Assembly (NCBI GenBank): GCA_003990765.1
Contig: RBNJ01000169.1
Coordinates: forward strand, 1-38,133
Direction: 5' to 3'
Source: Jimgerdemannia flammicorona
Taxonomy: Eukaryota
Length of the DNA: 38,133 nt
Shown: one piece after another, positions 679 to 24,172 of the stretch
Position numbering within the stretch: position 1 is the first letter of the stretch
How the letters are laid out: every line of letters starts with the position of its first letter
The notes under the pieces: model-generated
Told to the model about the DNA's origin: nothing
What the model saw: only the letters and a program-made list of their open reading frames with translations
Databases searched by the model: none
Made by a program: the position numbers and the translations under genes

Positions 679-2071
679 GAATGATCATGAGGTTGGGAGA
701 AAATTAAATTGGATAAGGCAAGCGGATTGGGATCTTCACATCTTATTTACCTTGTCATCGATTGTCGTTCCGTTGTTCCCACCATAGATTACAAACTAAG
801 ATAAAGCCAAACCAAGTTAATTACGCACTTCAAGAGCCAGAAAAAGAAAAAAACAAAAACCTACCGTGCTCCCTTCTTGTGCTGCACATCCTCCAATTCG
901 TGTAGATGTCGCGGGAAGAAGTGATGCGTTGATACCAGTATGGGTGATGCTCAGCACCTGCATGTTTTTCGCTGGGATAGTCGAGCTGTTTTTCAATAAT
1001 GTGCCTGTGCCCGACACTCCTGTTTTGATTTTGACCATGACGAAAAAGGTTGAATACGGTCAGCAATATTGAAAGGGGACTACCAATTCAACGACGTGCG
1101 CGACAGAGACGGTTTTACTTTACCTGGGTAAACGTACAGTTTGTTGGAGGGAGAGTGGTAGAATAGATGATGGCGGCTGACTCCTGTAGGCAGCTTCGTC
1201 GGTGACGAAACCCACGAATACGATTGCAAATCGAACATCCAAATGATCTGGTTATATTGGGAATTTGTCGCATTCACCTGCGTCACTCCACCAACCATGA
1301 ATATCATCCCGTTTGCGGAAATGGCAAGGTCTGCGGGCGACAAGTAATAAAGTGCGGTGAAATTCATTGCTGATGGTATGGACGTGTTGGTGATATGTTG
1401 TTGCCTAGTGGTCCACGTAAACGTCGTCAAGTTGAGAATGTAGATATTTGTCGCGCCAGGAGTGTTGAGCCCCTGAAAAATCCACAGCGAATCGTTCACT
1501 TGGACCATGGGTTTCCAGCAGCTGTCCCAGTCGATGCAGGAGGGATACAAACGGGAGGAGACGTTGCCGACGAGGTTCAAAGGCCCCAGCCAGCGATCTT
1601 TGGAGATGTCATAACCAATCCAATCGTTGCCACCGACGATCAGGGTCCCGTTCGGCGACACCACGCAGGGATTCAGATAGGGTTGAATGACGGTGGCGCT
1701 GCTGTTGCGGGAAGAACTAAGGAAGGTTTGATTGACGGATAGAGGGTGCCAGGTGGGCGGGCCTTTGGTGAGGTCGAGGGGGAATTCAGTGTAGGCGAAA
1801 ACGTCATAAGTGGTGCTGTTGACTCCTTCGCCGCCGAGGACGTGGAAGCGGTTGTTGTAGACGAAGGTGCAGCCATACTGGCGGGGCCCTGTTTGACAAA
1901 TGGCAAAGGATTAGAGAGCGGGAGAGAATCTCAACGAGGATGTTCTGTAAGAGTCACGAAAACATCAAACCACAAACGCGACTAACCTAGATCGGCGGCA
2001 ACCAACGTCGCGCCTAAAACCATGAAGACAACGAAGTCCAAGAGCTCTTTCGGCGTTAAACTTGTTGCCAT
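195..2071 (-). CDS. Kelch/galactose-oxidase-like beta-propeller protein with N-terminal hydrophobic segment, Ser/Thr-rich stalk and C-terminal TM helix (6 exons, apparently intact)
   Basis: ATG at 2071 (MATSLTPKELLDFVVFMVLGATLVAADLG). GT-AG introns join exons at approx. 2071-1987, 1888-1124, 1019-865, 795-751, 635-603 and 513-195 in frame. Kelch-like motifs RQYGCTFVYNNRFHVLGG, LWIFQG, IFMVGG..IWMFDL..W, FVIYGG. TM segment IAGNIIGGVILAVFVLLGVIVHY followed by RKR. Confidence 0.8.
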
Positions 2072-3608: not shown

Positions 3609-4723
3609 GAATTTCTTTCCCATTTCTCTTTCAACCAGCTCTTTCCTTTGGCAACAGCGAAAAATTTTCAATCCCTAAATGCGGCGAGTACAAGTTTTGT
3701 GGGCCCAGAACATTCCATTCCACGCTCGATCAGCATGCGAGATACCGTGTGGATATGTGCAGGATGGGGATTGTGTGGGTTGGGCCCAGGTGAACGGAGG
3801 TAGGTAGGTGAACGGGTGGAGGACGAGGTTTTTGAACGCAGATGAACACGTAAGCGTGCAGGTTGGCTTGGATGGAGTGGCGCGAACAAAGTGGACATGT
3901 TTGTACCTAATGACCCTTCAACCAGCTCCTCGCGACGCGATCCTCCCCTTTTTGAGCATGTCACACCGTCCTCTTCCGGTTGGCTTCCTCGTCTTCCCCT
4001 CATTGTCATAACCCCGGTCACCACCGCCGGTCACACAATCATTCGGTATCATGGTCCTCACCACTGGTAGTGCATTACGGGCGGTTCTGAGATGGGTCCG
4101 TTGAGGCACAATGCAAAATGGTGGAGGACGTGCCGAGGGAGACGGTTGAAGAGCAGGTGCGTGGGTTAGAAAGTTGGGCTGTGCCGAGAAAGCGGATATG
4201 AAATGGTGGATGTGGCAGAATAGGACGAGCGCGGCTGGATGCGAGGTGGAAAATTAGGACGGTCGTGCCGATCGAGGAGCTGGATGCGATCTTGGGGAGA
4301 TGCACATGCGCCAGCACGGAAACAGCCCTCTGGACATGCGACCGCGTCAACTTGTTGGGATCGGACAATCTCTTGCATCGTTTCCAATGGGGTTTGTAAC
4401 TTTGAAGAAAAGAAGGTTTATTTTATTTTATTTTATTTTATTTTTGCGTATAGAATAAACGAATATGTGGCTCCATGCTACAAAATTTTCCAGTCAGCTG
4501 AGGAGTGAGGACTTGAAAGATGTCGATATAATGGCCACATGGTCGGAATCCATCGTCACATTGGTGGATGGGCCTCCTGGTAAACAGATACACGCTGTAC
4601 AGGAGGCTGAGAAGCTCCCATAGCATCCACCAAAATATACATGACGACATACCTGGTGCTACTCCACTCTACTCCCCAGCGCCAATCATCGATGTCGATA
4701 CCACCGAAGCCGTTGACTCCTTT

Positions 4724-5770
4724 CTGGGCCATTCTTTAAAGGTGCGTAGAGTCGCTCGGTAGCCTTTCGGGTTATTGGGTCATGCTGAGAATGAAGTTTT
4801 CGTGGGTTATCATTTCATGTCTGGATTCTTCATTGAACTCTGACAAGAGTTCAGTCTGCAGGAAAGTGGTAAGGTTGCTCATTGATCTTTGGGGTCGACG
4901 AACAAACCGGACAAACCACACAAACTGGTTCTATAAAACTAAGTCACCTTCCACGTGATTGTTTCTATGCACTCTACCCTTTGCAGTCGTTTGAGTGCAG
5001 AACAAAAAGTCGTTTAAAATGACCAGTAGATACTTGAAGTTTACGCCAATTAGTGCTCTCAAATGAATCAAATTAATTCAAATTGAATCAAATGGAGGGT
5101 CATTGGAATCAAATCAAATTGAGGATTTTTTAATTTGAATAAAATTCAAATCTAATTAAATTTGAATTGAATTGAGGATCTGATTCAAACCCTATTTTTT
5201 GAAATGTAATAACTTGATAAAAATATGTCCAAATTTAATAAGCTAAAGATCATTAAATTTGGACATATTTTCATTGAGTTATTATATTTCAAAAATAGAG
5301 TTCAAATCAAATCTTGAATCAAATTGAATTTGGGTCAAATTCAATTCAATTCAATTTATTGAGAGCACTAATACCAATTGTATATATTTTGGCAATAGCT
5401 ATTTTGCTATTAGAGAATAGTTCTATAGAATTCTATTAGTTCTTTCAATATTTGAAAAAACAGATATTGGTATATTAATAACTATTCTCTAAAAACAAAA
5501 TTTTCTTTTCTTATCTCATTTTGTTATTTATCATATAAAAGAACAGTCTGATATATAGTAAAAGCCCTTAACCATAGTTATATTCTTTATAATAGTATAA
5601 TGGTAGTATGGTATTTTGTCTTTGAGTATTATAAATAAAAAATAAAGAATTATATTTAAATTGTTAAATCCATAGTAATGGTCTCTTTCTGTTCTTTTTT
5701 ATTATAAAAATTAAAATAAAAGTAATTAGGTTAATATATAAAGAAATAAATATATTATATATATATACTA
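4724..5770 (+). repeat. Left arm of a long inverted duplication (interrupted by the MITE at 5051-5370)
   Basis: 4724-5050 is the reverse complement of 22871-23179 (e.g. ctgggccattctt..gtcgctcgg..gggtcatgctgagaatgaagttttcgtgggtt). 5375-5550 pairs with 22695-22875 and 5555-5760 pairs with 15490-15730. Confidence 0.9.
5051..5370. mobile_element. hAT-like MITE, family A, copy 1
   Basis: TIRs tagtgctctcaa / ttgagagcacta; subterminal aattg/aatca repeats; 8-bp TSD acgccaat (5043-5050) vs ataccaat (5371-5378); absent from the inverted partner near 22871. Confidence 0.85.
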
Positions 5771-8700
5771 CTGATTTTAAGTAACTGATTAGTATAATAA
5801 GTTTAATAAATAACTATAAATAAAAGTCTGTATACTTAATAAAAAATACTTTTTTTTAAATTTCTATTTTAATTGAGTAATCTTTTAAACTTACTATCTA
5901 AGAGGAATATATATAACCTATTACTATAAGTGGAATATGTACTGATTATATGAGAAATACTGGTTTTTAATAGTTTGAAATTTTCTTCTTTTAACTTTAG
6001 ATAGAGAGTTAGTCACTTTGTTAAGATTTTATTCTTTAGGCTACAGACTGGAGGTTCAAATCTGACCAGATGACTTTTTGTAATTACTGATAAATACTAT
6101 ATCATACTGATATAGTTGTCACATATTGTACTAGTTTTATATAGTCTTTCTGATTTAACTATATATAGAAGGTCCAGAGAAGTTCTTTAACAAAATAATC
6201 TTTTTATCTCATTGGCTAATTATAGTATTTCTTTTCTCTCAATATTCAAAATTATATATTCCAGATAAATATATATATATATTATTTGCTATATTTGCTA
6301 TATACTCTAAGTTTAGAGCTATAGTTCCTTTCTTTGCTATAGGATAAGTATTTCTATATAGTTCTGAAAAACTATATATATATTTTCTAATACTTCTTCT
6401 TTTTTCTAAGTAGTGTTATGAGTAGAATAATCCTTCTACTTGATAAGAAAAAACTACTTAACTATTTTAGTATATTTGTAGACCTTGTGATCAAGTATCT
6501 TCTCAATTTTAAATTCTCCATAATTATTAATTCTAATTAGAAGTAGTAGTAGAACTATATATTTGGAGAATGGATTTATATAATAGTCTACCAGTTGACT
6601 GATATAGAATACTAAGTGAACTTAAATATTATAGAGAAGTTATAGCTTGTAGTTGACTTTACTAATTTTTTCTACAATTTTATATAGTCTAATTCTTCTA
6701 ATATAGAGTTTCTTGAATAATTGCTAAACCAGGATATCTGGATAAAGATAGCCTGTTCTGAGTATGACTATATCATTAATATTATAAGAGACTTCACTTT
6801 GCTTCAAGTTGATATATCTGATCTTGTAGTTCTGTACTTTTATAAGAGTATTTCTTATTATTTATATAAGATTAAAAATAGTTTTGGCTAAGTTTTGGGC
6901 TACTGAGACTACTGATTTTATAGTAATATTTGGGATCCTTAGATATTGATCATGATTTAGAAAGAATGGGGTCTTCTTCATAGAGATTTGCTGACTATTG
7001 TTATAAGTAAACTTGGTATAGGCCAGGTACTTATCCTAATTATTTTACTTATAACAGCAGAAGATACTGAGTATCTATTTAAGAGTCCTGTTGATGTGCT
7101 TAGTCTATCTATCTATCTAGAGATAGTAGACTATAGAGAACTTCAGTTTGGTACTATGGAGAGAGAAAAATATCTTCTAGAAGTTACTTGTGAACTTGGT
7201 ATCTCAGTCAGATATAATGGTACTAGATATATCATATAATCTGAATATTTGATTGAGAAATATTTCAGCAATCTCAGAGACTATAACAGTAGTTTTAGTG
7301 AGTATAAAGTAGGCTTGTTTGCTTAGATAGTCTATAAACACTATGATTGTATTTTATCTTACCTTTGTTTTGAGTAGCTGGATGATAAAGTTTATTATAA
7401 TCTGATCTCAGTTATGGCTAGAGATGGGCAGAGACAGCAGAAGTCCTACTGATAGCTTATTGTTACTCTTAAATCTTTGACATATTTTATATGAGGCTAT
7501 GAAATCTTTGATTTCCTTAGTCATCTTTGGCCAGTAGAACTCTCTTGAGAGGAGATTGTAAGTCTTCTTGAAATCAAAATATCCTACTATAGGAGTATCA
7601 TAGAGTTCCTATATTATCTTAAGTTATAGAGTATCATCTTTAAGTATTACTACTCTGTTATAGTCTCTATAAATGAGTTTATCATAATAGATAAACCTTT
7701 TAGTCATTCTTTTTATAGGTTCTGAGACTTTAGTCTTAGGGTTTTAGTAGAGTTGAAGGAATTTTAATAGAGAGCTATCTTGTTAGTAGCCATCCTTGAT
7801 AATCTGAATAAGGTCTCCAATTATCTCAACTATAAAGATAAGTTTATTTTCTATAAATCTAGAGAAACTATAAGCTATATAGTTAGTTTTGTCTGAGATA
7901 CATATACTTGATTTTTATATCAAAGTTGGTAATAATTTCCATCTAGCAGGCTTGTCTATAAATCAGCATAGGCTATATATAAATATACTATAGAGTATGA
8001 TGATCAGTATAGGTTATAAAAGGTTATTCTAGAAGAAAATAGCATTATTTCTAAAGTACAGTAATAATAGCTAAGAGTTCTTTCTCATGGTTAATATAGG
8101 GTCTTAGTTGACTTGAGCTTTTGGGAAAGATAGATTACTAGTCAATCTTCTTGGCTGAGTACTAGTCTAATAGCAATATCAGATGTATCTGTAGTCAAGA
8201 TAAATAGCCTAGTAGGATTAGGTGCAATTAGCACAGAGGTCTCAATAAGGAGTCTCTTGAGATAGTCTATAGCCTAGATATACTCAGAAGTCTATTTATC
8301 TTAATGTTTACTCTTTTGTAGACCAGACTGATCAGTGGAGCTATAATAGTAGAGTATCCTTAGATAAATCTTTGATAGTATTCTGAAATACTCAGAAAGC
8401 ACTGAAGTAGCTTGAGGATAATAGAGATAAGAATATCTTAGAGAGCTGATACCTTTTAGGAGTTTATATTAATATCTTTAGCAGAGATAATATGTTCTAG
8501 ATATTTGATCTGGTCTTGATAGAACTTATACTTACTCATTTTGATATAAAGCTAGTATTTCTATAGAAGAGTTAGTATCTGCCTAAGATAGATATAGTGA
8601 AGTTCTATAATCTTACTGTAGATTAGTATATCATCTATATATATAAAGATACAAATATTGAGTAGTGGTATTCATTAGATATTAAAATATTATTAGAATA

Positions 8701-10075
8701 TTGGTTAAACCAAAAGATATAACTTGGAACTTATAGTATTCAAAATATATTCAGAAAGCTGTCTTTTCAATATTCTTTTCATCAATAAGGATCTGGTGAT
8801 AACTATTTCATAAGTCTAATAGGGAAAAGGTCTTGGCCTTGAAGATTTTATATAACAACTTATCAATCCTAAGTAAGATATATTAGTTTTTGATGATAAT
8901 CTTATTGAGAGCTCTATAGTTAATGCATATTTATAGAGAGCCATCCTTCTTCTTGATAAATATAATAGAGACTTCAAATGGAGAATAGCTGAGTTTAATA
9001 TATCCTTGGACCAATAGTTTAGTTAACTCATCCTTGAGAATCTTGAGTTTAGATTGAGCTAACTGATAAATACTCTTGTATGGAGATTTAGATTCTAAAA
9101 TAAGATCAATTCTATACTAGATTTGGTACTTGGGTAGGAGTTCTTTGGGTTTCTAGAATATATCTTGAAATTTCTCAAATAGTTCTTGAGCTTCTAGTAA
9201 GACTGGACTACTTGGGGCTTTAGGGACTTTTTGTACAATATAGATAAAATATATGTTTTCCTTTTTACAAAGAAGTCTCTTTATTTAAATTGTAGAAATA
9301 ATCTCAATTTCTTAGTAGTTGATACTCTTCTGAGATATTAGGGTGATTTTTCTGCCTTTATGAGTCAGATTAATCTTATTGGTCCTTCAGTTGATGTCTG
9401 GATTATACTAGATCAATCAGGTCTTTTCTAGAATAATATCTTGTTCTGGGAGATCTATAATACTAAAGTCTAACTTTCTTGATATTTGTTAATCTTGAGC
9501 AATAGGTCTTTACAGATTTTGGTCAAAGGTGCAGTCTTACATCACTAAAGATAACACTTCTTTTCTCAGTAGCTGGTCTGCTTCAGACTCTAATTCTCTT
9601 GATAGTCTTGGTACTAATATAGTTTTCAGTAACACTACTATCCAATAAGTTACTGACATCTTGCCTGTGAACTTGGCCTGTAAACTTGATTCAACTGTTC
9701 TCTTTTTTGATAGTATTGAGCTCTTTATCATTATTGCTCCAATTGTCTTAATTGCTATCAGTCTTCTCAGAGTCAGTCTCTCTCTATCCTTTATAAAAAG
9801 AGTGGTCTAGTTTGAGTTTCTCAGTATATTGGGCTTAGTATTTCTCAAATTGGATTTTAAAATCCTTAGAGAGATATATATGATATTTACTAACATATTC
9901 TATGCAGTATATTTAAATAGAATAAGAGGATCATCTATATGATACATAACTATCTGTAATTCTCTTATACTAGTTTTCATCATATTTCTTTATAATAGTA
10001 ACCTTTTAACTGAGAGGTTTATTAGTTGATCTAAACTCTTTCTTACTTCAATCTGTCTGAAAGAGCTTAGGGACT

Positions 10076-10135
<60 letters not shown>

Positions 10136-10379
10136 CTTTCATTGCATTTATTTTGGAATTTACAAAACGCGAAGATAGCTTTTAGCCTCCCCGAAAAGAA
10201 AAATGAAAAAACCTCGTAGGTTCGATGTTATTATCAATACAATTTACATGTCGCGATGAAAAAACACACTAATCAAATCCTTGAAACCCTTGATCACACC
10301 ACAATATTGGTCATCGCACCCTCGACAACCGTTTGCTGGGTCCCTCGGATTCGCAATTAGTTTCGCGTTGATGATCGGA

Positions 10380-10946
10380 CTAACAATCGCTGTCAGTATC
10401 GCAATCAGTTGTGTGATGGTCGGAGCAAGATGACTCGTGGTCGGAGCATGATGTGTCATGGTCGGAGCAAGATGTTTCATGGTCGGAGCAAGACGTTTCA
10501 TGGTCGGAGCAAGACGTTTCATGGTCGGAGCAAGACGTTTCATGGTCGGAGCAAGACGTTTCATCGTCGGAGCAAGACGTGTCATGGTCGGAGCAAGACA
10601 TTTCATCGTCGGAGCAAGACATGTCATGGTCGGAGCAAGACATGTCATGGTCGGAGCAAGACGTGTCATGGTCGGATGTGTTGCAATCAGAGTAGCGGGG
10701 CTTGTGGTCGGACTCGGAGGAGTGGCAAGACTCATCGGAATCATGGTGGTGCTTCTTAATCGGATCACAAGGCTTCTTCCCCTTCTTTGATTTCTTCCCT
10801 TTGCCTTTCGGAGCGGGATGCGTAGGTTCTCCTCTATGTGCGAGGGCGGCACTATCCCTATGAGCGATGGGGATTGGGGTGGACATGACAATAGTGGCGA
10901 ACATCGCCAGAAGGACAAGGGAAACGAGGGCGTTGGAAGGCTTCAT
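10380..10946 (-). CDS. Secreted-type His/Cys/Asp/Ser-rich heptad-repeat protein (188 aa), putative metal binder
   Basis: ATG start, signal-peptide-like MKPSNALVSLVLLAMFATIVMS, Lys-rich linker, about 12 copies of SD(H/D)(E/D)(T/M/S)SC; orientation agrees with the poly(A) tail. Confidence 0.75.
   Translation of the reverse strand: MKPSNALVSLVLLAMFATIVMSTPIPIAHRDSAALAHRGEPTHPAPKGKGKKSKKGKKPCDPIKKHHHDSDESCHSSESDHKPRYSDCNTSDHDTSCSDHDMSCSDHDMSCSDDEMSCSDHDTSCSDDETSCSDHETSCSDHETSCSDHETSCSDHETSCSDHDTSCSDHESSCSDHHTTDCDTDSDC
10417..10678. repeat. 21-bp coding tandem repeat, about 12 copies
   Basis: Unit approximately tcatggtcggagcaagacgtt with variants. Confidence 0.95.
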
Positions 10947-12529
10947 GGTGATGAAGAGGAGAGGAGATGAGGGTATGAGATTGCGAAGTGGGCTGATGAG
11001 GCTGAGCTTAGGAACTTCTTTGATAGTAAGATCTTAATAGATTTTCTTAATGATTTCTTGGGCAATTCTTTAAAGTCTAAATGGTAGTTCCTAAAGACCT
11101 TATATAGGTCTTTATACATATATCTTATTAATTAGTAGCTAGTGTAGCCTTGGGTCTATATTTTTCTGGTGCTATCTAGTCCTAGTGGCTATTGCTAGAT
11201 AGGTTCTAGTTTATGGATTTGTTCCTTAAAAATCCACAGTTAGTTTTATAGTTACTCTTATCTATACTTGGTTTTGTTCTAACTTCTCAGAAGTATATTC
11301 TTGATACCATATTGGCTTGGTAATTCTATAGTTACTAAGTTGTAATACTCTTTCTTATTTCTACCCCTCTCTTATTCTTAGATAATTAAGGAAATATAAT
11401 ATTACTTAGAGACTTAGTCCAAGAAGTCTTCAGTATAAAGAAGTATTCACTTAAAAGTAGTTATAGTGACAATGTCCTTCTTGATAACTATAGTTATAGA
11501 AGACTTATTCTTAGCTATATAGACTGAATTTACCTTAAAATTCAGATTCAATAAGGAGTTTTCCTTAAGTCTTTGGAATTTATATATCAGTCTCAGTTTT
11601 AGTAGAAGTTATCTAGACTTCTAAAGTTTAGTTAGAAATACTAGAGTTACTTGGATATTATTACTAAGACTCAGAAGAATGTGTGTGTATGGTGGAGAGA
11701 CTTAATGATTATATTAAAGACTGAACTAAAACTGCTTATTTCAGATGGAAAACTGGGGGTAATTATACAAGTTGGTTCATGATTTCTGACTAAGTATGAG
11801 TGACTAATTTGGTAACTATGGATGAGTTTTATAATTATAACCTTATAATTAGAACCTTTATAATATAGGTTATTAAATAATAATCAGTTACTATAATAAT
11901 TACTGTGGTACCAGTTGTTGAAGATAGGCTAGATATTATTTATCTGTATTATTTATATCATTTATATTCTACTCATTATATTTATCATATATACTTAATT
12001 GTGATGTCATCACTGGTCACATGATTACTCATTATATCTTATTTATTATTTTATTATAGTCAGCTGACTCTCTATATAACTTATAATATACTAAGATAAT
12101 ATCTTATTAATAATAACAAAGAAAGAAAGTACTATATCAAAACAGATATGTATATTTCAGACACAGTCAGAGATATTAGAAACTGTAAAAAAGTAGAGAA
12201 AGCACTGATTCAATACTAATAAAAGAGCAACTTGTCATTATTATCTCTCTTCTACTGCTCTGTAATAGATATAATAAACTAACTTAAGATAAAAAAGATA
12301 TAAAATATAGAAAAGAGATATAGAAGATTGCCTACCAAAATCTTATAACCAGTATAGTAGTAGAGAAAGAGATCACTTATATATATACTCTTATTCAGAA
12401 GATACTCTAAAAACTTATTAAGTATATATATATATAACTCATTAGTTTCATAACTTATTGACTTATATCTTATATATTAATCTCTTAACTATTTAATTTA
12501 TATATATATATATCTTATCTGTTTATATA

Positions 12530-12796
12530 TAGAAATCCCAGATGGCTGACCATATGGCCAATGACTGGCTAGAGTAATTTGGCCTTAAATTTAAGACTGA
12601 GCTACTCTATCTCAGCTTTAAATTTACAGCCAACTAGTCAAGTGGTATTTATAGACCTTTTATTTAATTTGGAAAATTTAAAAATCAAAATTGCCAAATA
12701 AGACCTGATCACTTAATCAACTAGCCAATCTATAAATTTTAAAGCTGAGCCACTCTGGCCAGCTATTGGCCATAAGGTCAGTTATCTGAAATCTCT
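12530..12796. mobile_element. MITE family B with about 70-bp imperfect TIRs, in a (TA)n context
   Basis: agaaatcccagatggctgaccatatggccaatgactggctagagt.. vs the reverse complement of ..actctggccagctattggccataaggtcagttatctgaaatctct; mismatches are mostly transitions. Confidence 0.75.
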
Positions 12797-13047
12797 CTCT
12801 CTCTATATATATATAAATCAGTAAAATTTATATAAATATTATATAAGTATATAGGCTTTTATAAAGATGAAGTAAAAGAGAGAGTAGTTAACAATGGATC
12901 TATCAGTAGTTCTTTTTATACTTATTATACTATTTTATAAATATATTTATATATCTCTTATACTTATTTATAGTTAGAACAGAGTACTATTTCTATTAGA
13001 ATTTAGTATTATAAGTTATTTTCAAAAGTAATACAGAAGAAATATAT

Positions 13048-15444
13048 TGTGACGTACACAATTGACAATGGAGTACTAGTGACTGCTAAGATCAGATGAC
13101 ATAATGGCATGACAATCAAACAGACAGCCTGACTCATTAAGTGATCATTCCAAAAGAAGACAAGATGATCCGAGCCAAAATAAAGACCACGTTATTTAAG
13201 GAACCATACTCCACCTCAAGGATCAGCACCAAAGAACCAAGCACCCACCACACAATGCCTCCTATTCGCCGAACCAACCAGACCTCCTGCTGCTCTACCC
13301 CTTTGCCTGGCCCAAAGACCCTGATCTTTGAAGCTATCAAGAAGGCCATCTGGCGCCCAGATACTTCCGAACACTTGAACTTCTATACTGAGGACCTTGG
13401 ACACTTCATCAACTACTGGTATATAATGACCCAACAGCTCAAAGACACTACTGAATGAATGACCCTCTGGCATGACTACGAAATTGGATACTGCCTTCGC
13501 AATGAGACTCAAGAAGGTGACCAGGAAGACCTCATTGCCGAAATGTTAACCACCAGCCAGCTAATCAAGAGAGCCCTCCATGTCCACCAAATCTTCCGCT
13601 ATATTCTCTGGGCCATAGCACACTTGCAAGGAGTAACAGCTGGCAGTCTTGCCCGTCTCTCAACTGAAGATGTAGACTGGATAGAATCAGAAGTAGCCAA
13701 CTCTACTGGTAGTAACCGGGTCGCTGTAGGAAGCCAACAAACTGAACCTACTCAGCCAGGTTTCCACACCACCCCACTCCAAGACAACCATCAAGGTCAC
13801 CTAATGAGTCTTATGGAGATATTTGAAGGACCGCCCATTACCATAGAAGTACCCATTGGAGCTACCCCAACCACCCACCACCCTGTCAGCCACAATTCAC
13901 ATCTCATCATTTGGGAACCGAATCAAGAAGAAGCCCAAGAGGTCCCTGTCTTTAAGGGGGAGCCCCAAGAACTCCAAGGCCCTGCCCCTGAAGAAACCCC
14001 CTCTGACACTGAAACTGACGAGTCTTCAGAAGAAGAAGAGGAGCAACAGAGAGTCTACCAGTCCTCTGTCTACATTCAAGCTGTTCAAGGGTTGGAGAAT
14101 GTTGTTGAAGATGACTGGCCACTTTTCTACCCCCTCACCTCTTGGCTGGTGCTTCCCCCTTTTGAGGAGAGATATGATGAAGAAGAAATCGCAACCCAGC
14201 AAGATTTGCCCACCGCAGACAAATGGTACTATTCCCTCTAGAGTACCGCCTATCAGCCGTGAGAACCAAGCTTTTAGTCAGCATCCATTTTCAGTATTGC
14301 CACCCTCTACAACTGTTTCTGGCAACAATCAGCAATCATGTCAGCAAGTCTGAATCCAGCGTTGCTACCCAGTACCACCATTTTCAGCATTTTGTCAGCA
14401 AGTCCGTTTTCAGCATTGCTACCCTCCACAACCGCTTCTGGCAACAATCGTCGCATCCATATCCATCTGTGTCAGCATTTTGTCAGCAAGTCCGAATCCA
14501 GCATTGCTACCCAGCACAACCATATCCAGCGTTGCTATCCAGTACGACCATTTTCAGCATCTTGTCAGCAAGTCAGCCCTTCACATTGTGCAAGCCAATA
14601 GCATAGCAAAGTTTGCCACAATGTAGTATACCTTAGCCTTAGTCGCGTGCCCCCCCCCATAGCTAGCAAACTTGTATAAATAACCCATATTCTTAGAGTG
14701 AATAAACCTCAGTCAGATAGTTTTACAGAGAAAACACACTGCCTCCAAGAGACCGGATAAATTCTGAGAACAAGATAACAACCTAGAGCAACGGATTGCT
14801 CGGAAGTTTGAGTTAAAGAATTTTCTCTTGCCATGGAAAGAAAGAAAACGTTACCCGACTGCCGCCATTCGAGACCCGAGACCCAGCCAAGGATTCAAGA
14901 CCAAACCGCCATTCGGACTGCACATTCGAGACCGCCATTCGAGATTCAAGACCCAGAAACCCAAGGGTACCCAGCCAAAGACCGACCCGCTGCCAAAGAC
15001 CCGAACAACCACCAAGGACCCCAGTAAACCTGCCCTCAAGTTAACAAGTTAGACGGACGAGCGAGCCATCAACCTCTGTTTTCCGACCTACTGCGCCATG
15101 AACTGCTTAAAGTCAAGACCGTCGACTGCTTTAATTGACCGCATAAAGAGCAAGACCATCAAGACCATTGCCACATAAATCCGAAGTTTGCCACCAAGTT
15201 AAACACTGCCAGGAAACTTAGCCAGCATAATTGCCGCCCTTATCCACTAAACAATTGAGCCACCATCGACATCCTGAGCCCACCATCGTCGAACTCCCGT
15301 TATTACCGCATGAATCGAATGACCCGTCACATGACCAACGACCCACGAAACGTCACCAATGCCTTCAGTTATATACATCGCGCACGTCATCTGTGACATA
15401 TTGAGCCGTACAGTCGAAGTTCATTATATATAACCAATGTCACA
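13048..15444 (+). mobile_element. 2.4-kb TG..CA element, most likely a very long solo LTR
   Basis: Ends tgtgac..gtcaca; TSD atat/atatat (13042-13047, 15445-15450); tgtataaata at about 14673 followed by aataaa at 14701; internal tandem repeats at about 14300-14580 and 14870-15020; normal GC inside AT-rich flanks. Confidence 0.7.
13255..14241 (+). pseudogene. About 328-codon ORF of unknown function inside the TG..CA element, interrupted by one in-frame TGA
   Basis: ORFs 13141-13458 and 13459-14241 share a frame; ATG at 13255 (MPPIRRTN); single stop TGA at 13456-13458; acidic C-terminal part. Confidence 0.6.
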
Positions 15445-15489
15445 ATATATATAAAATAACAAAATGAGTTTTAATCTAAATATATAAAT

Positions 15490-15730
15490 ATATACTATTT
15501 ATTTCTTTATTAACCCAATTATTTTTATTTTGTTTTTTATAATTAAAGAATAAAAGAGACTATTGTCAAAGATTTAACAATTTAAATATAATTCTAACTA
15601 TAGATATAATATTATTTTCTTCTTATCTATATTAAAAATTAATTCTTTATTTATAATACTTAAAGACAAAATATCATATCATTATTGTATTATAATATAA
15701 AGAATAGAGAGTTAAAGATTTTTACTATAT
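15490..15730 (-). repeat. Inner part of the right arm of the inverted duplication
   Basis: Reverse complement of about 5555-5760 (e.g. ttatttataatacttaaagacaaaata vs tattttgtctttgagtattataaataa); separated from the outer part by the gypsy insertion. Confidence 0.8.
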
Positions 15731-16213
15731 TGTAATAATTTTATAATATTTCTTATTATTTCTTAGTTATAGTCTATTTTTGTATCTTTTTCTCTAGTCT
15801 TTTTTGTCTTTTCTTAAATATTTCACAATGTTCCAGTATCTTCTACATACTTAGAAATCCTCTCCTAGTATCAAGACTTTATAAGAACATTCTTATCTTC
15901 TTTTAGAACCAAGTATCTTATCTTAGCTAGTTATAAAACCTTTTAGAACATTGTAGAATTCTATTAGTCAACTTTGCTGAATACTTATTTTTTGGCTTTT
16001 CTCTTCATTTCTAAGATATTTCTGGATTCTTCTTTCAGATCTATATAAATATCTTCATCTTCTACTTAAATAAAAAATAGCTTATTTTCTTTTAGAAATT
16101 CTTCAAGATCTCTTAAATCTATATATAAGTATCTCTTTAAGTTACATACTTTAGGTCTATCTAAATATCTTCAGATTTAGTCACTTCCTCTTAAAGAAAC
16201 TAGAACTGTTATA
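15731..16213 (+). repeat. 5' LTR
   Basis: tgtaataatt..aaagaaactagaactgttata; colinear with 22214-22689. Confidence 0.9.
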
Positions 16214-16653
16214 CTTTGTAACAGTGGTGAAGTTATATCTTATCTTATTAAGAAATCTCATATAAATTTAAAAACTAGTTATAACTAGTTATATGAGTTT
16301 AAAATGAACTACAGAGAATCTGCCAATCAGCCAGAACCTACTCTAGAAGAAGATACTGATCTAGAGATATAAGTAAATTTAGCAGAAATAATTACTACTA
16401 TGATACATTAGCTCTAATATCTATAAATATAACTAAAATAATAGAAAACAAAGAATATAGTAGTATATCCTATAATCATATCTATCAGTTTCAAGTTACT
16501 TAAGTCAGATATTTTTGATAATCACTAAGAAGAACTATTTACTGATATCTAGACCTTCTAATTAGACTAATACTTTGAACTTATAAGTATAGAAGAAGAT
16601 ATATAAGTCTAATTATCATCATTCTTCTCTAAGAAAATACTACTCTCTAGTAG

Positions 16654-17113
16654 TATAATAGTTCTAGTTTCTTTAAGAGAAAGTGGCTAAGTCTGATAAT
16701 TTTAGTGGACCTAAAGTAGCTCAAAGAGATACTTATAGGTTTAAGTATTCTTAAAGAAATTCTAGGAGAAAATATTCTGAACTTTATTTAAGTAGAGAAT
16801 AAGAATATTTATACAAGATCTAAAAAAAAGATCTGGAAGAATCTTAGAAAAGAAGAGAAAAGTCAAGAAATAAGTTCTTGATAAAGATGACTAATAGAAT
16901 TCTACAATATTTCAAAAGGTTCTATAACTAGCTAAGATATTTGATACCAAAAAAAGACAAAAATGTTCTAGTAATATCTTAGTACTAAGAGAAGATTTCT
17001 AGATATTTGGAAGATACCAGAACATAGTAGAATATTCAAGAAAAGACTAGAAAAGACTAGAGAAAAGATATAAAAAAGTACTAAGACTAAGATATATCTG
17101 TAAAATTGTTATA
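16654..17113 (-). mobile_element. Inverted solo LTR of the same family inserted in gag
   Basis: Starts tataatagttctagtttctttaagag (reverse complement of the LTR end) and ends taaaattgttata; flanks agtag (16649-16653) and gatag (17114-17118). Confidence 0.85.
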
Positions 17114-17850
17114 GATAGTATAATTATATTATGATTATATATCTACTAAAGAATAAAAATAGAAGATTGGGCAGCCTTCAAGAAAGTCCTTCACAAGCAA
17201 TTTAAGTCTGCAAATATCACCAAACTAGTCAGAGACAGGCTAGTATATATTAAGTAACTTAAGTCTGTACAAAGTTATAATATATAATTTTTATTAATTT
17301 TTTTGGAGCTATGTACTAAATATTGTTAAAGATGAGAAAATTGATTACTATGTCTGAGGCTTAAAGAGAAATATATGAGTCAAGATCAATCTAGAAGAAC
17401 TAAAATCTCTTGAAGATATCATGAGAATAGCTGACAGATTTGATATTATGATCTATGATTACTGCTTTAAACTATCAAGTTCTTTAAGACTGCTGATATT
17501 TGAAAAAATTAGAACAATATAGAGAAGATTAGTATGGCCCCTATATAAGAATGATACTATCTTTTTGAGTAAATAGCTCTATCACTACTTTGAACCAGAA
17601 TACTATAAGAAGAATTACTTTAAGAATTGTAATAAAAATCAGCCTCAAATAGTAAGATCAGTCTCAATAGATTTGGACTCTATATATAGAATAAACACTA
17701 AGCTTACTTTTGAAGAGAAAGAATATCTAAAGAAGTCAGAAGTAAATTTTTTCTACTATCTGATAGGATATACATATTATAATCAAATATTCTAAAAAGA
17801 CAAATAAATCCATAAGACTAGTTACTATATTGTCTAAAGATATACCCATC

Positions 17851-18240
17851 TAATGCTCTCAAATAAATTGAATTAATTTAAATTGAATTGAATTGAGAGT
17901 CATTTGAATCAAATCAAATTGGGGATTTTTAATTTAAATCAAGTTCAAATCAAATCAAATTCAAATTGAATTGAGGGTCTGATTTGAACTCTATTTTTCA
18001 AAATATAATAACTTGATAAAAACATTTCCAAATTTAATGATCTTAAGCTTGTTAGATTCTTCTTATATAAAGGAATCTAATAAGCTAAAGATTATTAAAT
18101 TTTGATATATTTCTATTGAGTTATTATATTTCAAAAAATAAAGTTCAAATTGAAGCTCAAATTAAATTAAACCTTAGATTTAATCAAACCAAATTAAATT
18201 TGAGTCAAATTCAATTCAATTTGATTCATTAGGAGTACTA
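17851..18240. mobile_element. hAT-like MITE, family A, copy 2
   Basis: taatgctctcaaataa..aggagtacta; colinear with 5051-5370 plus a central hairpin at about 18041-18091; TSD not recognisable. Confidence 0.8.
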
Positions 18241-21200
18241 GTTCAGAAGACCACTATGTAAGAATTATACCCAGATCAGAACTCAGTATCAATTATTATT
18301 TAGATATTAGTACTGATATCATAATCTAGACTATTGAGAACAAGTTCAAGTTCTCTTTATCAATTAGAAGGATTAAGAATATATAGTCAAGGAAGGAGAC
18401 TGAGTTGTATAAATAATCTTAGAAGAAGCAAGTCAATTCAAGATTACAGAAGTCCAAGAACTACTCTCAACTATATAAGATTAGAAAGACTTTAGAAGTA
18501 GTTATATAGCAGATAGTACTTTATATCCTATTAAGTCAATTACTGCCAAACTACCCATTAAGATCCAGAAATATTAAGAATGAGTTGACTTTAATATTAC
18601 TCTACAATAAGACAGAGTTAATATCACTATCAAGTCAGACAAGTTAGTGAATAAGACTCAGATTGTTTCTCTGTTAGTAATATAATATATACTCAAGAAA
18701 GAACTATATACTTTTATTGCTATTATCTATCTTAAGAAATAAGACAAGAAGCTATCAATCAATAAAAGTATTAAGTTACTACTAGAAGAATTTAAGAATG
18801 TCTTCCCAGACAAGCTACCTGATTTATCCCTTATATAAGAAGTAGACTATAAAATTAAACTGATCTCAGAAACCTTACTATCCAAGAAGTATATATATTA
18901 TATATCATCTCTTAAGATAGAAGTAGTTAATAAAGAATTAGAAAAACTATTTATCTGAGGAGCCATCTAGTCTAGCAAGTCTCCCTATAGCTCACTAGTT
19001 CTTTTTATTAATAAAAGGATAGAACTTTATAAATATATATAAACTACTATACACTCAATAAGCTTATAGTTAAGAACTAATATCTACTATCTCTTATTAA
19101 TCAGATCTTTAATACTCTCAAGAATGCTAAGTATTTCACCAAGCTAGACCTTATATCTAAATATTACCAAATTTGAATCAAGCTAGAAAATATCTTCAAG
19201 ATTGCTTTTTTGACCTCTTTTGGACTTTACAAATTCCTAGTTTTAGCATTTGATCTCACCAATATATCTACAATATTTCAGACTCTTATAAATAAGATAT
19301 TCAAGAGCCAACTGTTTATTTTTCTATTGATATATCTTAATGATATTCTGATCTTTAGTATAACTAAAGAAGAATATCTTAAGTATATCTGTCTTATTTT
19401 GAAAATCCTGTAAGAATATAAGTTATATATTAAACTTAAAAAATTGAATATCTTGATCACATTATCTCTGCTCAAGAAATTCAGATAGATCTATACAAGA
19501 TAAAGATAATTCAAGAATGGTCTGAACCAGTAAACCTTACAGAACTCAGATCTCTGGACTTAGTCAGTTATTACTACTGCTTTATCAGAAATTTCTCTGG
19601 GATTGCTAAACCTCTCACAAATCTAATAAAGAAGATACTATACTTAGAGTATTATATATCTTATATCTGATATCTCATTTGTCAATAAGTACTTCAAGAA
19701 CTCAAAAACATCTAATAAATATCTCAATATTATAAAATTCTAATTCAAACCTAAAATTCATAGTTACTATTAATGCTTCAAATTTTGCTATTAGAGCAGT
19801 CTTTTTACAAGATAATAGAAATGAATACTACTCTATTGTCTTCAAGTCATAAAAACTATCACTTGCAGAACAGAAGCTAGTAACTTATGAAAAGAAATTA
19901 CTAATTATTATATATATCTTAGACTATTGGAGATATTATCTAGAAGATATTGAGTTTGATATTATTACTAATCATCAATCTCTTAAGTATATTAACAGTC
20001 AATCTACCCTGTAATTTCAATAAGCTAGTAGAGTTAGAAATTTCAAACCTTCAATTTGATAATTATCTACAAGCCTAGCAAGATACTTGTAATATCAGAT
20101 ATCTTATCAATATATCTAGATCTTACTATAGTTATATAAGTTACCTTGATACCAGAATTTCTAGACCAAATTAGATAAATCTATAAGAAAGATACTATAA
20201 CTACTAGAGTTACCTTGAATGAGCTCAAGGATATATATATTCTCAAAGATAATCTGATCTACCATTAAGACAAAGTCTATCTATTTGATAATTCAGAACT
20301 TTACTATAAGATATTATAAGAACACTATAACTCCCCACTTACCAGTTATCTTGAAATTGAAAAAACTATCAAAAATCTTTAATATTACTACTACTAATCT
20401 AATTTAATTAAGGAAATCAAGAACTATATTACTAGTTATAATCTTTATCAATATAATAAATCTAGCAACTAAGTATTAGCTAGTCTACTCTAATCACTTC
20501 TAATTTCTATCAAGAAGTTTGAATAAGTTACAATAAACTTTATAATAAACTATCTTAAACTAAGTCTAGTACTGATATTATTATTATATTCAAACTATCT
20601 GATTAAAACCATAGTTACTGAATCTACTACTTTCAATATTACTGCTCCTGAGATTGTAAGAATCTTCTTTAAGTTTATCTTCTATCATTATGATCTACCA
20701 TAAGTTATAGTCAGCAATTAAGACCTTAAGTTTATCAGTTACTTTTGGCAAGTTCTCTTTAAGACTCTAAGTATACAAATTGTTATATCTACTATCTTTT
20801 ACCCTCAAACTAATGGACAAACTGAGTTTATAAACAGAATACTTAAAAAGATGCTCAGAAACTATATTTTTTACAAATAAGATAATTGAGACTATTATCT
20901 GATATATTTAGAATTTGTATACAATAATACTGTCCAATTATCTTCTAGTCTTTCCTCTTTCTGGCTACTTTATAATCAAGATCCTAAGACTTCTATAAGT
21001 CTAGTTCCTTTTTAGAAAAATAGTCAAATACAAGTCTTTACTATTAAAAACCTCATAGACAAAAAGAATGAACTACTTAAGATTACTATTATAAACTTGC
21101 AGAAGACTCAATAATATCAAGCTAAATATGCTAATAAGAAATACTATAAATATTACTTATACTATTAATAATCAAGTTCTTCTATCAACCAAAAATCTCA

Positions 21201-21674
21201 AGATATAATTGCAAGTTAACCATCTATTGAATAAGTTCTAACTCAAGTTTATTAGATTCTTTGAGATCATAGAATAAGTTTCTATAAATATCTACTATCT
21301 CAAGTTATCTGAAACTATGAGAGTATATCTAGTATTTTATATATCTTACCTCAAGACCTGAAACCAATCACTACTCTACTTTGGTCAAATTCTGAAGTCT
21401 TCTACTTCTATAATCATTAAAGACCATATCAAGTATAAAGCTGAGAAAATTCTTAATAAATGAATCTGCTACTACTAATCTAAATATCTAATCAAATAGA
21501 TGAGCTACTCTGAATATAATATAATCTAAAAACTACTAGTTAATTTCAAGAATACTTAAGATCTTATATAAGACTTTGAAGTAAAAATACACACTTCTGC
21601 CTCTATCTACTAGTTTGATATACTTTTGTATATAGGTATAATTACTAATAATAAGCTTATTTAGAATATATAAC

Positions 21675-22035
21675 TAGTACTCTCAAATAAATCAATTTGA
21701 ATCAAATTGTATTTAGGGTCATTCAAATTGAATTAAGGTCTGATTTAATTTAATCAATTTGAAATATTTATTCCAAATTCAAAATGTAATGACTCAATAT
21801 AAATATGTCCAAATTTAATATTCTTTATTATACTAGATTCTCTATTATAAGATATATTAAATAAGCTAAAATTTATTAAATTTAAATATATTTTGATTAA
21901 GTTATTGAATTTTGAATAATTAGATTTAAATTGGACTTTGAATTAAATTGAATTAATCATTAATTCAATTTGAATATTTTAAATTGAATTGAATTAGAGG
22001 TAATTTTGATTCAATTAAATTTGTTCTGAGTACTA
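21675..22035. mobile_element. hAT-like MITE, family A, copy 3 (more diverged)
   Basis: tagtactctcaaataa..ctgagtacta; flanks tatataac / gaaataac (6 of 8 match). Confidence 0.75.
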
Positions 22036-22213
22036 GAAATAACAAGGGTTTTTTCCTAAATAGTTTAAATCTCCAACTACTAAGTCTTTAGCTCTCATCT
22101 TATATAAGATGACCAATTCTTCATAGTGGCACCTGTATAAGTTTGATAAATATAACTATTCTTATATAATCTTAGAAATTCAATGAGAATATTAATTCTT
22201 AAAAATGGAGAAA

Positions 22214-22689
22214 TATAATAATTTCTTAGTATTTCTTAGTATTCTTTAGTTATAGTCTATTTTTGTATCTTTTTCTCTAGTCTTTTCTTATCTTTTCTTA
22301 AATATTCCATAATGTTTCAATATCTTCTATATACTTAGAAATCCTCTCTGGATATAAGACTTTACTAGAACATTCTTATCTTCTCTTAGTCCTAAGTACC
22401 TTATCTTAGCTAATTATAGAACCTTTTGAAATATTGTAGAATTCCATTAGTTATCTTTATTGAGAACCTATTTTTTTGGCTTTTCTCTTTATTTCTAAGA
22501 TTCTTTTAGATCCTTCTTTCAGATCTGTATAAATATCCCCATTATCTGCTTAAATAAAGGATAGTTTATTTTTCTCCAGAAAACCTTTGAGACCTCTTGA
22601 ATCTATAAGTATCTCTTCAAGTTACTTTAGGCCCATCTAAATACTTCCAGATTTAGTTACTTCCTCTTAAAGAAACTAGAACTATTACA
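22214..22689 (+). repeat. 3' LTR
   Basis: tataataatt..aaagaaactagaactattaca, preceded by a purine tract. Confidence 0.9.
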
Positions 22690-22694
22690 TATAT

Positions 22695-23179
22695 AGTAAA
22701 CTGTTCTTTTATGTAATAGATTATAAAATGGGATGAGTAAGGAATTTTTTAGAGAACCCAACTTAATATGATTAGTTATTAATATACCAATCTGTTTTTC
22801 AAACATTGAAAGAACCAACAGAATTCAATAGAACTATTCTCCAATAGCAATATAGCTACAAAGCATATACAATTGTCATAAACCACAAGCATCTACTGGT
22901 CATTTTAAACAACTTTTTGTTTGGCACTCAAACTACTAGTGCGCGAAGGGACTATTTGGGTCATAGAAACAATCACGTTGTCTGGTTTGTTCCCTCGACC
23001 CCAAAGATCAATGGGCAACCTTACCGCTTTCCTGCAGACTGAACTCTTGTCAGAGGTCAATGAGGCAAGGAGGAAGAATCCAGACATGAAATGACAACCC
23101 ACGAAAACTTCATTCTCAGCATGACCCAATAACCCGAAAGGCTGCCGAGCGACTCAACGCACCTTCAAAGAATGGCCCA
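22695..23179 (-). repeat. Outer part of the right arm of the inverted duplication
   Basis: Reverse complement of 4724-5050 plus 5375-5550. Confidence 0.9.
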
Positions 23180-23359
23180 GTAACGACATCTCAAAAGGTT
23201 TCTGGCATGTTTCTTTACCATCGCATGCGCCCTCTATTCTTTTCCATCTTGAGGCATTGCACCTTTTCCTCCTCGGCCAACAAGATCTTCACAGGCTCAA
23301 GCACCTCACTCAGCTCACTGCCACCGCCGCAGACTCCTCCGCCTCCAACCTCTCTAACA

Positions 23360-23650
23360 AGAAGCTACGTGTGCATTAACCAGTGCGACGTCCTGCTGGC
23401 GTGCGGCCATCCGTGTAAACTTAACTGTTACGACTGCCAGACGACCACCATCAGCTCGGAACCAGCCCTGACACCGTGCGCATCGTGCGAACCGCCCACG
23501 GGCCCCGCGGTCAGGTATGCGACCGGAACTTGTTCTGCGGTTATGCTTGCGCGGCGAACTGTCATCCAGACGAAGACTGCCCGCCGTGTATGATGAACTG
23601 CGCAGCGTTGTGTGTGCATTTCAGCTGCTCGCGGCCGTGCAATGATGTGT
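23360..23650 (+). pseudogene. Fragment of NFX1-type zinc-finger repeats (ZNFX1/NFX1-like), frameshifted
   Basis: CINQCDVLLACGHPCKLNCYDC in one frame, then VCDRNLFCGYACAANCHPDEDCPPCMMNCAALCVHFSCSRPC in another; no helicase domain nearby. Confidence 0.7.
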
Positions 23651-23922
23651 CCTGCGTGTTGCGTGTGGGAATGAATGCCTCATCAGGAAAGGTATCATGA
23701 ACATGAACTCTTCCTGTTATCTACAAATTCGACATCGCACCTCGCACCCTACTCGCCGTCTAATGCGGCGATCGAGTCCTTGAACGGTTGAAGACGCCGG
23801 GGTGGCCTTTTTAAACTTGCAACCGCCAAACATCCATTAGACATTAGACCTCTCCTGGTTAAATCACCCCGTCCGACATCCACCATTGCCCATGAGCTTT
23901 TATTATGCCACTTTACAAGATC

Positions 23923-23974
<52 letters not shown>

Positions 23975-24172
23975 AGGGGGGAGGATCCACAGGGAAAGAA
24001 GAGAAATAGCCAACGGAAAGAGTGCTCGTATTTTGTATGTAAGAATGAAAATGTGAGTAAAAATAAATAAATTTTTGGTTGGGATTTTGCTATATTGGAA
24101 ATGTACCGCAAACCCGTTCTTTGTGGTAGGGATACCGTTTTTGTAAGATTTGCTGGTGTTCGGGACGATGAC

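Follow-up and report, generated by a model that had tools for sequence, protein, structure and literature searches.

A 38,133-nt stretch of the genome of the fungus Jimgerdemannia flammicorona, analysed here as a single locus and referred to as the window, contains a nest of dead transposable elements (TEs) that has been hypermutated from C to T, at the cost of all its CpGs and roughly half of the remaining cytosines. We confirmed that mutation in this repeated DNA runs in one direction, C>T or G>A, and affects both strands, and that the risk run by a cytosine is set by the base 3′ to it, in the order CpG > CpA ~ CpC >> CpT, while the 5′ base is without effect. An initial annotation, prepared from the sequence alone, had described a transposon island at 5051–22870 that looked like what repeat-induced point mutation (RIP) produces, and had placed it in a probable non-Dikarya fungus. 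The explanation that we prefer, and hold with moderate confidence, is a methylation-linked C>T mutagenesis confined to silenced TE DNA, in which DNMT1/5 would act at CpG and a DIM-2-like enzyme elsewhere, rather than classical RID-dependent RIP.

Three CpG-free blocks define the island

Outside approximately 5.0–23.0 kb, the GC content of the window is 0.39–0.51 and the observed/expected ratio (o/e) of CpG is 0.7–1.3, whereas inside this region GC falls to 0.21–0.31, and of the 18 1-kb bins that make up 5001–23000, 12 have a CpG o/e of 0.00. The flanks of the blocks have a GC content of 42–51% and a CpG o/e close to 1. When every CpG in the window was listed, three CpG-free stretches totalling 14,717 bp were identified, and beyond these no further CpG-free stretch longer than 300 bp was found in the window:

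5045–10167, no strand assigned: CpG-free AT-rich block 1 (GC 0.271; 0 CpG vs 93 expected; composite RIP index +0.08)
10985–13052, no strand assigned: CpG-free AT-rich block 2 (GC 0.267; 0 CpG vs 37 expected; composite RIP index +0.40)
15416–22941, no strand assigned: CpG-free AT-rich block 3 (GC 0.249; 0 CpG vs 115 expected)

Together the blocks contain 0 CpG compared with 245 expected from base composition (93 + 37 + 115), in agreement with the initial annotation, which had reported CpG to be nearly absent over about 14 kb of TE sequence. The abundance of TpA that it described is also evident from RIP indices computed block by block: TpA/ApT is 1.11–1.23 in the three blocks compared with 0.32–0.76 in the four other blocks, where composite RIP indices of −0.52 to −1.00 contrast with +0.08 to +0.40 in the three. 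The RIP substrate index is only 0.83–1.02. GC in the island is lowered by about 20 points. The island is hypermutated as proposed, but it is not uniform over 5051–22870, as two inserts within it, 10168–10984 (GC 0.50, CpG o/e 1.06) and 13053–15415 (GC 0.48, CpG o/e 0.52), are of normal composition.

Mutation is directional and affects both strands

A pol profile was built from 70 intact homologues of the translated island and used in a six-frame search in which stops were read as X. This search detected two Ty3/gypsy pol regions, each in order across several frames, at 9735–6355 on the minus strand and 18584–21595 on the plus strand, which belong to the following elements:

6355–9735, minus strand: dead Ty3/gypsy pol (protease, reverse transcriptase (RT), RNaseH, integrase), with five profile matches spanning positions 13–1147 of 1177 in three frames
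15731–22689, plus strand: dead Ty3/gypsy long terminal repeat (LTR) retrotransposon, with an LTR pair, TG..CA ends, a 5-bp target-site duplication and pol at 18584–21595

Stops number 59 in the 1211 aligned codons of the minus-strand pol and 43 in the 984 of the plus-strand pol. Each difference at strongly conserved profile positions was classed by the smallest codon change, with 42 held-out intact homologues serving as the control set. Conserved residues were retained at 4613 of 4904 positions in the controls, compared with 58 of 112 in the plus-strand element and 77 of 128 in the minus-strand element. Changes of C>T/G>A only account for 43 of the 54 differences in the plus-strand element and 34 of the 51 in the minus-strand element, and not one difference in either is of the reverse type only. 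Pooled, the classes were distributed as follows:

Two island elements, amino-acid level: 105 differences; 73 C>T/G>A only; 0 reverse only; 21 transversion; 11 ambiguous
Two island elements, codon level: 105 differences; 77 C>T/G>A only; 0 reverse only; 21 transversion; 7 ambiguous
42 intact controls: 291 differences; 22 C>T/G>A only; 29 reverse only; 222 transversion; 18 other

The proportion of forward-only differences therefore separates the island from the controls (73/105 vs 22/291; p = 2e-34). Catalytic motifs follow the same pattern: relative to the consensus of the 70 homologues, YLDD>YLND, DAS>NAS, qtDGqtE>QTNGQTE and sDRD>SN*D are all present, which substantiates the decay by G>A that had been noted at these motifs. 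The coding strand often shows C>T, seen as P>S, H>Y, T>I and A>V, and just as plainly G>A, seen as D>N, G>D, G>S and C>Y, and thus both strands were mutated. An element that was intrinsically AT-rich or horizontally acquired was also considered as a source of the composition, and is ruled out by the directional non-synonymous decay and the stops.

The 3′ neighbour sets the risk of mutation

Sequence context was first read from conserved codons whose identity fixes the neighbouring base:

CpA: 13/20 mutated (65%); His CAY 7/8, Gln 0/2, Cys TGY 4/5, Trp second G 2/5
CpC: 24/48 mutated (50%); Pro first C 8/14, Gly second G 14/29, Trp third G 2/5
CpT: 3/33 mutated (9%); Leu CTN>TTY

The CpT figure would be 10/40 were all 7 TTR leucines taken as derived. 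CpA and CpC taken together differ from CpT with p = 8e-6, and CpG, with 0 of 245 expected remaining, is 100% lost. The cytosines that survive reflect this order, as 57–61% of those in the blocks (57% in block 1, 61% in block 3) are followed by T, compared with 21–29% elsewhere in the window.

A second estimate was obtained from the repeat copies in the island, with C assumed to be ancestral wherever copies alternate between C and T. By this measure the mutated fraction depends on the 3′ neighbour (G 0.53, A 0.35, C 0.30, T 0.13) and is flat with respect to the 5′ neighbour (0.25–0.34). The impression recorded earlier that CpG, CpA and some CpC contexts are hit on both strands is thus upheld by conserved codons and repeat copies alike, with CpT spared, and the alignment of TE copies with tabulated contexts that the initial annotation proposed yielded an excess by context.

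Copies were mutated after insertion, and ordinary duplicates were spared

The island contains several families in more than one copy, including miniature inverted-repeat transposable element (MITE)-like sequences and a repeat that we designate X:

15731–16214, plus strand: 5′ LTR of the plus-strand element, 83% identical to 22216–22687
22214–22689, plus strand: 3′ LTR of the plus-strand element, delimited by alignment of the LTR pair and by its termini
16652–17096, minus strand: third, inverted LTR copy inside the plus-strand element, 78–79% identical to both LTRs
5051–5370, no strand assigned: palindromic MITE-like copy B1, self-inverted over 5131–5358, matching 17851–18240 and inserted in repeat X copy 1
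17851–18240, no strand assigned: MITE-like copy B2, nested in the plus-strand element
21672–21988, no strand assigned: MITE-like copy B3, nested in the plus-strand element
4723–5770, minus strand: repeat X copy 1, consisting of normal-GC A1 (4723–5050) and AT-rich C1 (5371–5770) with MITE B1 between them
22690–23181, plus strand: repeat X copy 2, right part, AT-rich C2 followed by normal-GC A2; the left part, 15494–15730, lies beyond the gypsy insertion

The plus-strand element has the hallmarks of Ty3/gypsy elements, namely the RT–RNaseH–integrase order (profile positions 132–1152), TG..CA LTRs and a 5-bp target-site duplication, TATAT, at 15726–15730 and 22690–22694. The LTR sequences quoted in the initial annotation lie at 15800–15864 and 22284–22348, and the decay of LTR ends that it pointed out is borne out, as the 5′ LTR begins TGT.. 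and the 3′ LTR TAT.., while the 3′ LTR ends ..ACA and the end of the 5′ LTR is decayed. LTRs of the minus-strand element were not found: short-word blastn and transition-collapsed searches returned only noise, and local alignment with transitions tolerated reached a score of 115, where shuffled sequence averaged 112. Block 2 is probably the upstream part of this element. The ten best homologues of pol come from an alga, frogs and metagenome proteins, and are uninformative for taxonomy.

Repeat X provides the relative order of events. Over its full length, copy 1 can be aligned to 23181–22690 joined to 15730–15494, read as the reverse complement, such that two inverted copies of X bracket the island. 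As copy 1 retains the empty gypsy insertion site at approximately 5552/5553 and MITE B1 is missing from copy 2, the gypsy element and B1 arrived after X was duplicated; both are mutated. Block edges are razor-sharp at element boundaries, with CpGs surviving up to 7 bp from MITE B1. Where the normal part of X comes to its end (final 70 bp; 4980–5051 vs 22871–22942), the right copy has lost the three CpGs that are kept in the left. The right edge of the CpG-free zone thus lies about 70 bp farther out than the left edge, which may represent short-range leakage.

At 18 ancestral CpG sites, 5 in the LTRs and 13 in the MITEs, TG is found in one copy and CA in another, and CG is kept in none. For the other contexts, the visible mutated fractions in the LTRs (CpA 0.44, CpC 0.37, CpT 0.12) are close to the values of about 0.52, 0.43 and 0.15 predicted for independent hits on three copies at the codon-derived rates, and therefore nearly all of the damage occurred after insertion, separately in each copy. 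This timing bears on whether an AID/APOBEC-type cytidine deaminase could have edited retroelement complementary DNA (cDNA) before integration. Such editing would explain why coding-strand G>A is frequent, with D>N, G>D, G>S and G>R heading the list of substitutions, but C>T on that strand occurs at a similar frequency (P>S, H>Y, T>I, A>V), each of the two LTRs took its own hits once integrated, and the 5′ neighbour has no effect. We therefore regard it as extremely improbable; indeed, editing of cDNA is ruled out because DNA transposons and non-coding sequence, here the MITEs and non-coding parts of X, were hit as well as retroelements.

Two further features of the window, both of normal GC, served as internal controls:

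27668–29381 vs 33060–34489, plus strand: control direct repeat, 72–88% identical, copies ~5.4 kb apart
36845–37708, minus strand: control gypsy-type integrase, with an rve domain and profile matches, without the C>T signature

The direct repeat has a GC content of 0.42–0.49 and a CpG o/e of about 1 (0.85–1.34). It is older than the LTR pair, because its copies differ by more transversions (4.5–5.7% vs 2.6%). The integrase has 8 differences at 31 conserved positions, 6 of which need transversions, and 1 stop in 278 aligned codons. Repeat X is a better control than the comparison of LTRs with direct repeats: part A, in which the copies are 96–97% identical, is unmutated (transitions at 5 of 80 G:C sites), compared with 35 of 70 in the adjoining AT-rich part C (p = 7e-10). 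As a rough estimate from small counts, with the controls scaled to LTR age, CpA and CpC mutated at about 10 times background, CpT at 1–4 times and CpG at no less than 70 times.

These comparisons also speak to ordinary slow decay of old TEs, by spontaneous deamination of 5-methylcytosine (5mC) at CpG together with AT-biased neutral drift. Total loss of CpG fits such decay, as does the fact that ancestral CpGs were mostly hit once (TG or CA, not TA), which is expected if only CpG is methylated; the insert 13053–15415 is intermediate, with a CpG o/e of 0.52 at normal GC, and the background ratio of transitions to transversions in the window is already 2.6–3.1. However, the certain events outside CpG are numerous (His CAY>TAY 7/8, Pro CCN>TCN 8/14, Gly GGN>GAN 14/29), CpT sparing (3/33) is unlike plain AT drift, and the LTR pair has a GC content of 0.26 despite being younger, by transversions, than the normal-GC controls. 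In addition, the non-coding flanks and part A of X have remained at GC 0.42–0.50 with a CpG o/e of ~1. We consider slow decay improbable.

Proposed methylation-linked mutagenesis and its probable trigger

The nest of dead Ty3/gypsy elements and MITEs was heavily mutated C>T on both strands, in place and after insertion. Dependence on the 3′ base, with none on the 5′ base, is how cytosine methyltransferases read their substrate and is unlike APOBEC-type deaminases, and we therefore infer methylation-linked mutagenesis. As we envisage it, CpG methylation of the DNMT1/DNMT5 type would have led to the total loss of CpG, and methylation of other contexts by a DIM-2-like enzyme to the loss of CpA and CpC, the latter step being either deamination of 5mC or C>T conversion promoted by the enzyme itself. 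The CpG component would run to completion and the non-CpG component would stand at about half, with a RIP-like outcome of AT-rich, stop-filled relics. Direction, context, action on both strands and after insertion, sharp edges and the sparing of ordinary duplicates can be read from the sequence, whereas methylation, the enzymes that would carry it out and the stage of the life cycle at which they would act are what we infer.

The trigger would be transposon or heterochromatin identity rather than any duplication. It looks tied to these because the older 1.5-kb direct repeat, a retrocopy-like gene within the island (described below) and the other gypsy element are unmutated. Likewise, a sensor of any duplication is unlikely because the direct repeat, the retrocopy-like gene and part A of X are untouched, with the caveat that a length threshold or selection on coding copies could produce the same pattern.

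A true repeat-induced process, that is, a homology-sensing, probably premeiotic RIP-like mutator, independent of RID, with another context preference and acting in the past or episodically, is nevertheless the rival to which we give most weight, although we judge it unlikely. Everything that is mutated is multi-copy (the LTRs, the third LTR, the three MITEs and AT-rich X), the copies were hit independently, the sharp edges coincide with element boundaries, the single-gene insert at 10168–10984 was spared, and the sign of the standard RIP indices separates the three blocks (positive) from the four others (negative). The same unmutated sequences as above count against it, foremost the direct repeat, which is older than the LTR pair and yet keeps normal GC and CpG, along with the 96–97% identical part A, the intact retrocopy-like gene and the other gypsy element. 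Furthermore, RID is reported from Pezizomycotina alone (PMC9963178), the species is reported to consist of more than 77% repeats, and it is listed as 'no_rip' in the supplement of PMC12543289.

Several points weigh against the methylation-linked explanation. The ratio of transitions to transversions is only modestly raised, at 4.7–5.1 in the LTR and MITE pairs compared with 2.6–3.1 in the normal-GC repeats: over 417 well-aligned columns, the two LTRs differ by 52 transitions and 11 transversions, and MITE B1 vs B2 has 36 and 7 in 276 columns, compared with 67 and 26 (27668–28222 / 33060–33656) and 50 and 16 (28974–29381 / 34021–34489) in the direct repeats. Transitions per G:C site are 0.39 in the LTRs compared with 0.28 in the controls (p = 0.02). 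The observation in the initial annotation that paired LTRs differ mainly by transitions therefore stands, but the excess over normal-GC repeats is moderate, and the proof rests on direction and context rather than on this ratio. Majority-rule polarisation of the three LTR copies is directionless (T>C 35 vs C>T 33), and that of the three MITE copies showed no direction either; we read the 35:33 ratio as saturation, since sites hit independently with a chance of about 50% each would be expected to give it, and it lends no support by itself. Of the 102 in-frame stops, 31 face a lysine in the profile and would require a transversion, and for these to fit C>T, the weakly conserved positions concerned must have been Gln or Arg in the ancestor. 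The spared part A of X spans only ~320 bp and is separated from the rest by a MITE, so it could have escaped a sensor of homology that requires a minimum length. Known DIM-2 preferences are also dissimilar. In Zymoseptoria tritici, a Dim2-dependent mitotic C>T mutator raises mutation tenfold in methylated repeats and acts on CpA only (PMC8016269); more than 98% of its mutations are at CpA and CpG is not depleted, whereas the island has lost all CpG and is mutated at CpC no less heavily than at CpA. A review table assigns DIM-2 a preference for CpT, unlike the order found here. Lastly, the evidence comes from one locus.

Generalising from this locus, we propose tentatively, and with less confidence than for the methylation-linked explanation itself, that Endogonales have a RID-independent mutagenic defence, probably run by a DIM-2-like enzyme, that converts C in silenced TEs to T according to the 3′ base. 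The high repeat load argues that the process has not halted the spread of transposons here.

Unmutated inserts, host and neighbouring genes

Two inserts of normal composition lie within the island:

10380–10946, minus strand: intact open reading frame (ORF) of 188 aa, which starts with a signal-peptide-like sequence and contains a 7-aa (21-bp) repeat in 18 copies
13053–15415, plus strand: normal-GC insert of a repeated family, with ORFs at 13141–14241 and one in-frame stop (CpG o/e 0.52)

The 7-aa repeat of the 188-aa ORF is rich in Asp, His, Ser and Cys. Downstream of the ORF are a 246-nt tail and then a 54-nt poly(A) at 10079–10133, and the normal-GC block around it is a transcript-sized unit, such that it has the appearance of an mRNA that was recently retrocopied into a dead transposon. 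The ORF has no Pfam family and no relative in the Atlas (best score 0.77). Relatives of the insert at 13053–15415, 69–76% identical, were found on short JGI and ENA contigs; its ORFs have no Pfam family, and it could be a younger mobile family in early CpG decay.

Genes flanking the island place the host, on the basis of protein matches, in J. flammicorona (Endogonales, Mucoromycota) and not in Dikarya. A host gene in the left flank fixes the taxon:

1080–1910, minus strand: exon of a Kelch-repeat gene, 100% identical across 93% of the ORF to a named J. flammicorona protein

The best match of an eIF4G-like (MIF4G) ORF is another J. flammicorona protein (73% identity), followed by other Mucoromycota (52–63%) and then Dikarya (≤53%). 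The suspicion that the host was a Mucoromycota-like, non-Dikarya fungus was therefore correct, and an ascomycete with ordinary RIP is not the source of the island. The MIF4G ORF (25639–26586, minus strand) has an ORF with a Crinkler N-terminal domain directly upstream (26695–27195, minus strand), and one J. flammicorona protein, 66% identical to the window copy, combines Crinkler, MIF4G and MA3 domains. The identity of the Crinkler/MIF4G copy in the window to named J. flammicorona proteins is 66–73%, and its arrangement suggests a lineage-specific fusion family. When words were sampled from 23001–27000, fractions of 0.23 and 0.10 were present in two sequencing runs; no RNA run was listed.

Additional features were noted in the flanks. 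The left flank contains a 77-nt palindrome in purine/pyrimidine coding at 2253–2329, which is 65% palindromic at the nucleotide level. At 36144–36474 are short tandem repeats with unit offsets of 9 to ~130 bp, inside overlapping ORFs (36012–36707) that adjoin the normal-GC gypsy-type integrase.

Relation to published surveys

RIP-like mutagenesis has been treated as a trait of Ascomycota. The accessible portion of a 2025 kingdom-wide screen describes ascomycetes as unique in their repeat-directed mutation signatures, and its supplement contains the entries 'Jimflamm ... no_rip' and 'EndFLAS ... no_rip', for J. flammicorona and an Endogone sp., respectively, together with a 4.0-fold enrichment of TATA in J. 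flammicorona non-coding DNA (PMC12543289). As far as that material goes, the island is a RIP-like scar in a lineage recently scored as having none, and the listing fits the view of the initial annotation that mutagenesis of this kind is poorly documented. According to the same source, k-mers were counted only on scaffolds longer than 50 kb, and the N50 of the J. flammicorona assembly is near 11 kb. A review of zygomycete genomes gives J. flammicorona as more than 77% repeats and does not contain the word RIP. We found no report of RIP-like or C>T hypermutation in Endogonales or Mucoromycota in the literature searched, which did not cover the genome paper (Chang et al. 2019).

If our interpretation is true, defence by C>T mutagenesis did not originate in Ascomycota, and either is older than the divergence of Mucoromycota from Dikarya or evolved on more than one occasion; in that case the 'no_rip' call would be an artefact, caused by the fragmentation of assemblies and by relics having ceased to count as repeats. 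An island of this kind in an early-diverging mycorrhizal fungus reopens the questions of when such defence arose and which methyltransferase drives it, in a system where, in the accessible portion of PMC9963178, RID is absent and DIM-2-like genes are reported. Two J. flammicorona assemblies appear to exist (locus tags BC936 and BC938), so ongoing activity could be tested by comparison alone. The intact secreted-type gene in the island also hints at an arrangement of AT-rich island and effector as in some plant pathogens.

Comparison with known systems

The island most closely recalls the RIP of Neurospora crassa and other Pezizomycotina in its outcome, as both show directional C>T on both strands of TE DNA, near saturation and stop-riddled AT-rich relics, with sharp edges and positive TpA/ApT and composite RIP indices. 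They differ in context, as Neurospora-type RIP is dominated by CpA>TpA and the island is not (CpG > CpA ~ CpC >> CpT). They also differ in trigger, since Neurospora-type RIP acts on any duplication above a few hundred bp and ordinary duplicates in the window were spared, although selection on coding copies and length thresholds may affect this comparison. Pezizomycotina RIP takes place before meiosis in the sexual cycle and operates with RID. The accessible portion of PMC9963178 describes RID-1 as exclusive to Pezizomycotina and reports DIM-2-like homologues in Endogonales and Glomeromycota; the lineage of the island's host is reported to lack RID.

CpG depletion with TpG/CpA products is shared with 5mC decay of the DNMT1/DNMT5 type, but such decay is confined to CpG, whereas the island is also mutated at CpA and CpC. 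The RID-independent branch of Neurospora RIP is a DIM-2/heterochromatin-linked C>T mutagenesis. DIM-2-linked mutagenesis resembles the island in producing non-CpG C>T in silenced repeats at ~10 times background with no need for fresh duplication, and, as it would predict, mutation continued in the AT-rich part of X but not in the part next to it (35/70 vs 5/80 G:C sites).

Among Basidiomycota, the hypermutation of Microbotryum has a TpCpG bias. The accessible portion of PMC4352252 links C-to-T signatures in basidiomycete TEs to Dnmt1 subfamilies, and the CpG-biased hypermutation that it describes is like the island in erasing CpG from TEs without RID and in leaving TG/CA at ancestral CpGs. The island adds to this strong mutation of CpA and CpC, a fall in GC of 20 points, and the lack of a 5′ effect at non-CpG sites.

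With respect to gene content, the AT-rich isochores of Leptosphaeria maculans carry effector genes, and the island likewise is an AT-rich relic in which an intact gene is embedded, encoding a small, repeat-rich protein whose start resembles a signal peptide. Unlike genes in those isochores, the island gene, whose product may be secreted, looks like a recent retrocopy on account of its 54-nt poly(A). In its context signature, the island differs both from Neurospora RIP and from basidiomycete CpG hypermutation.

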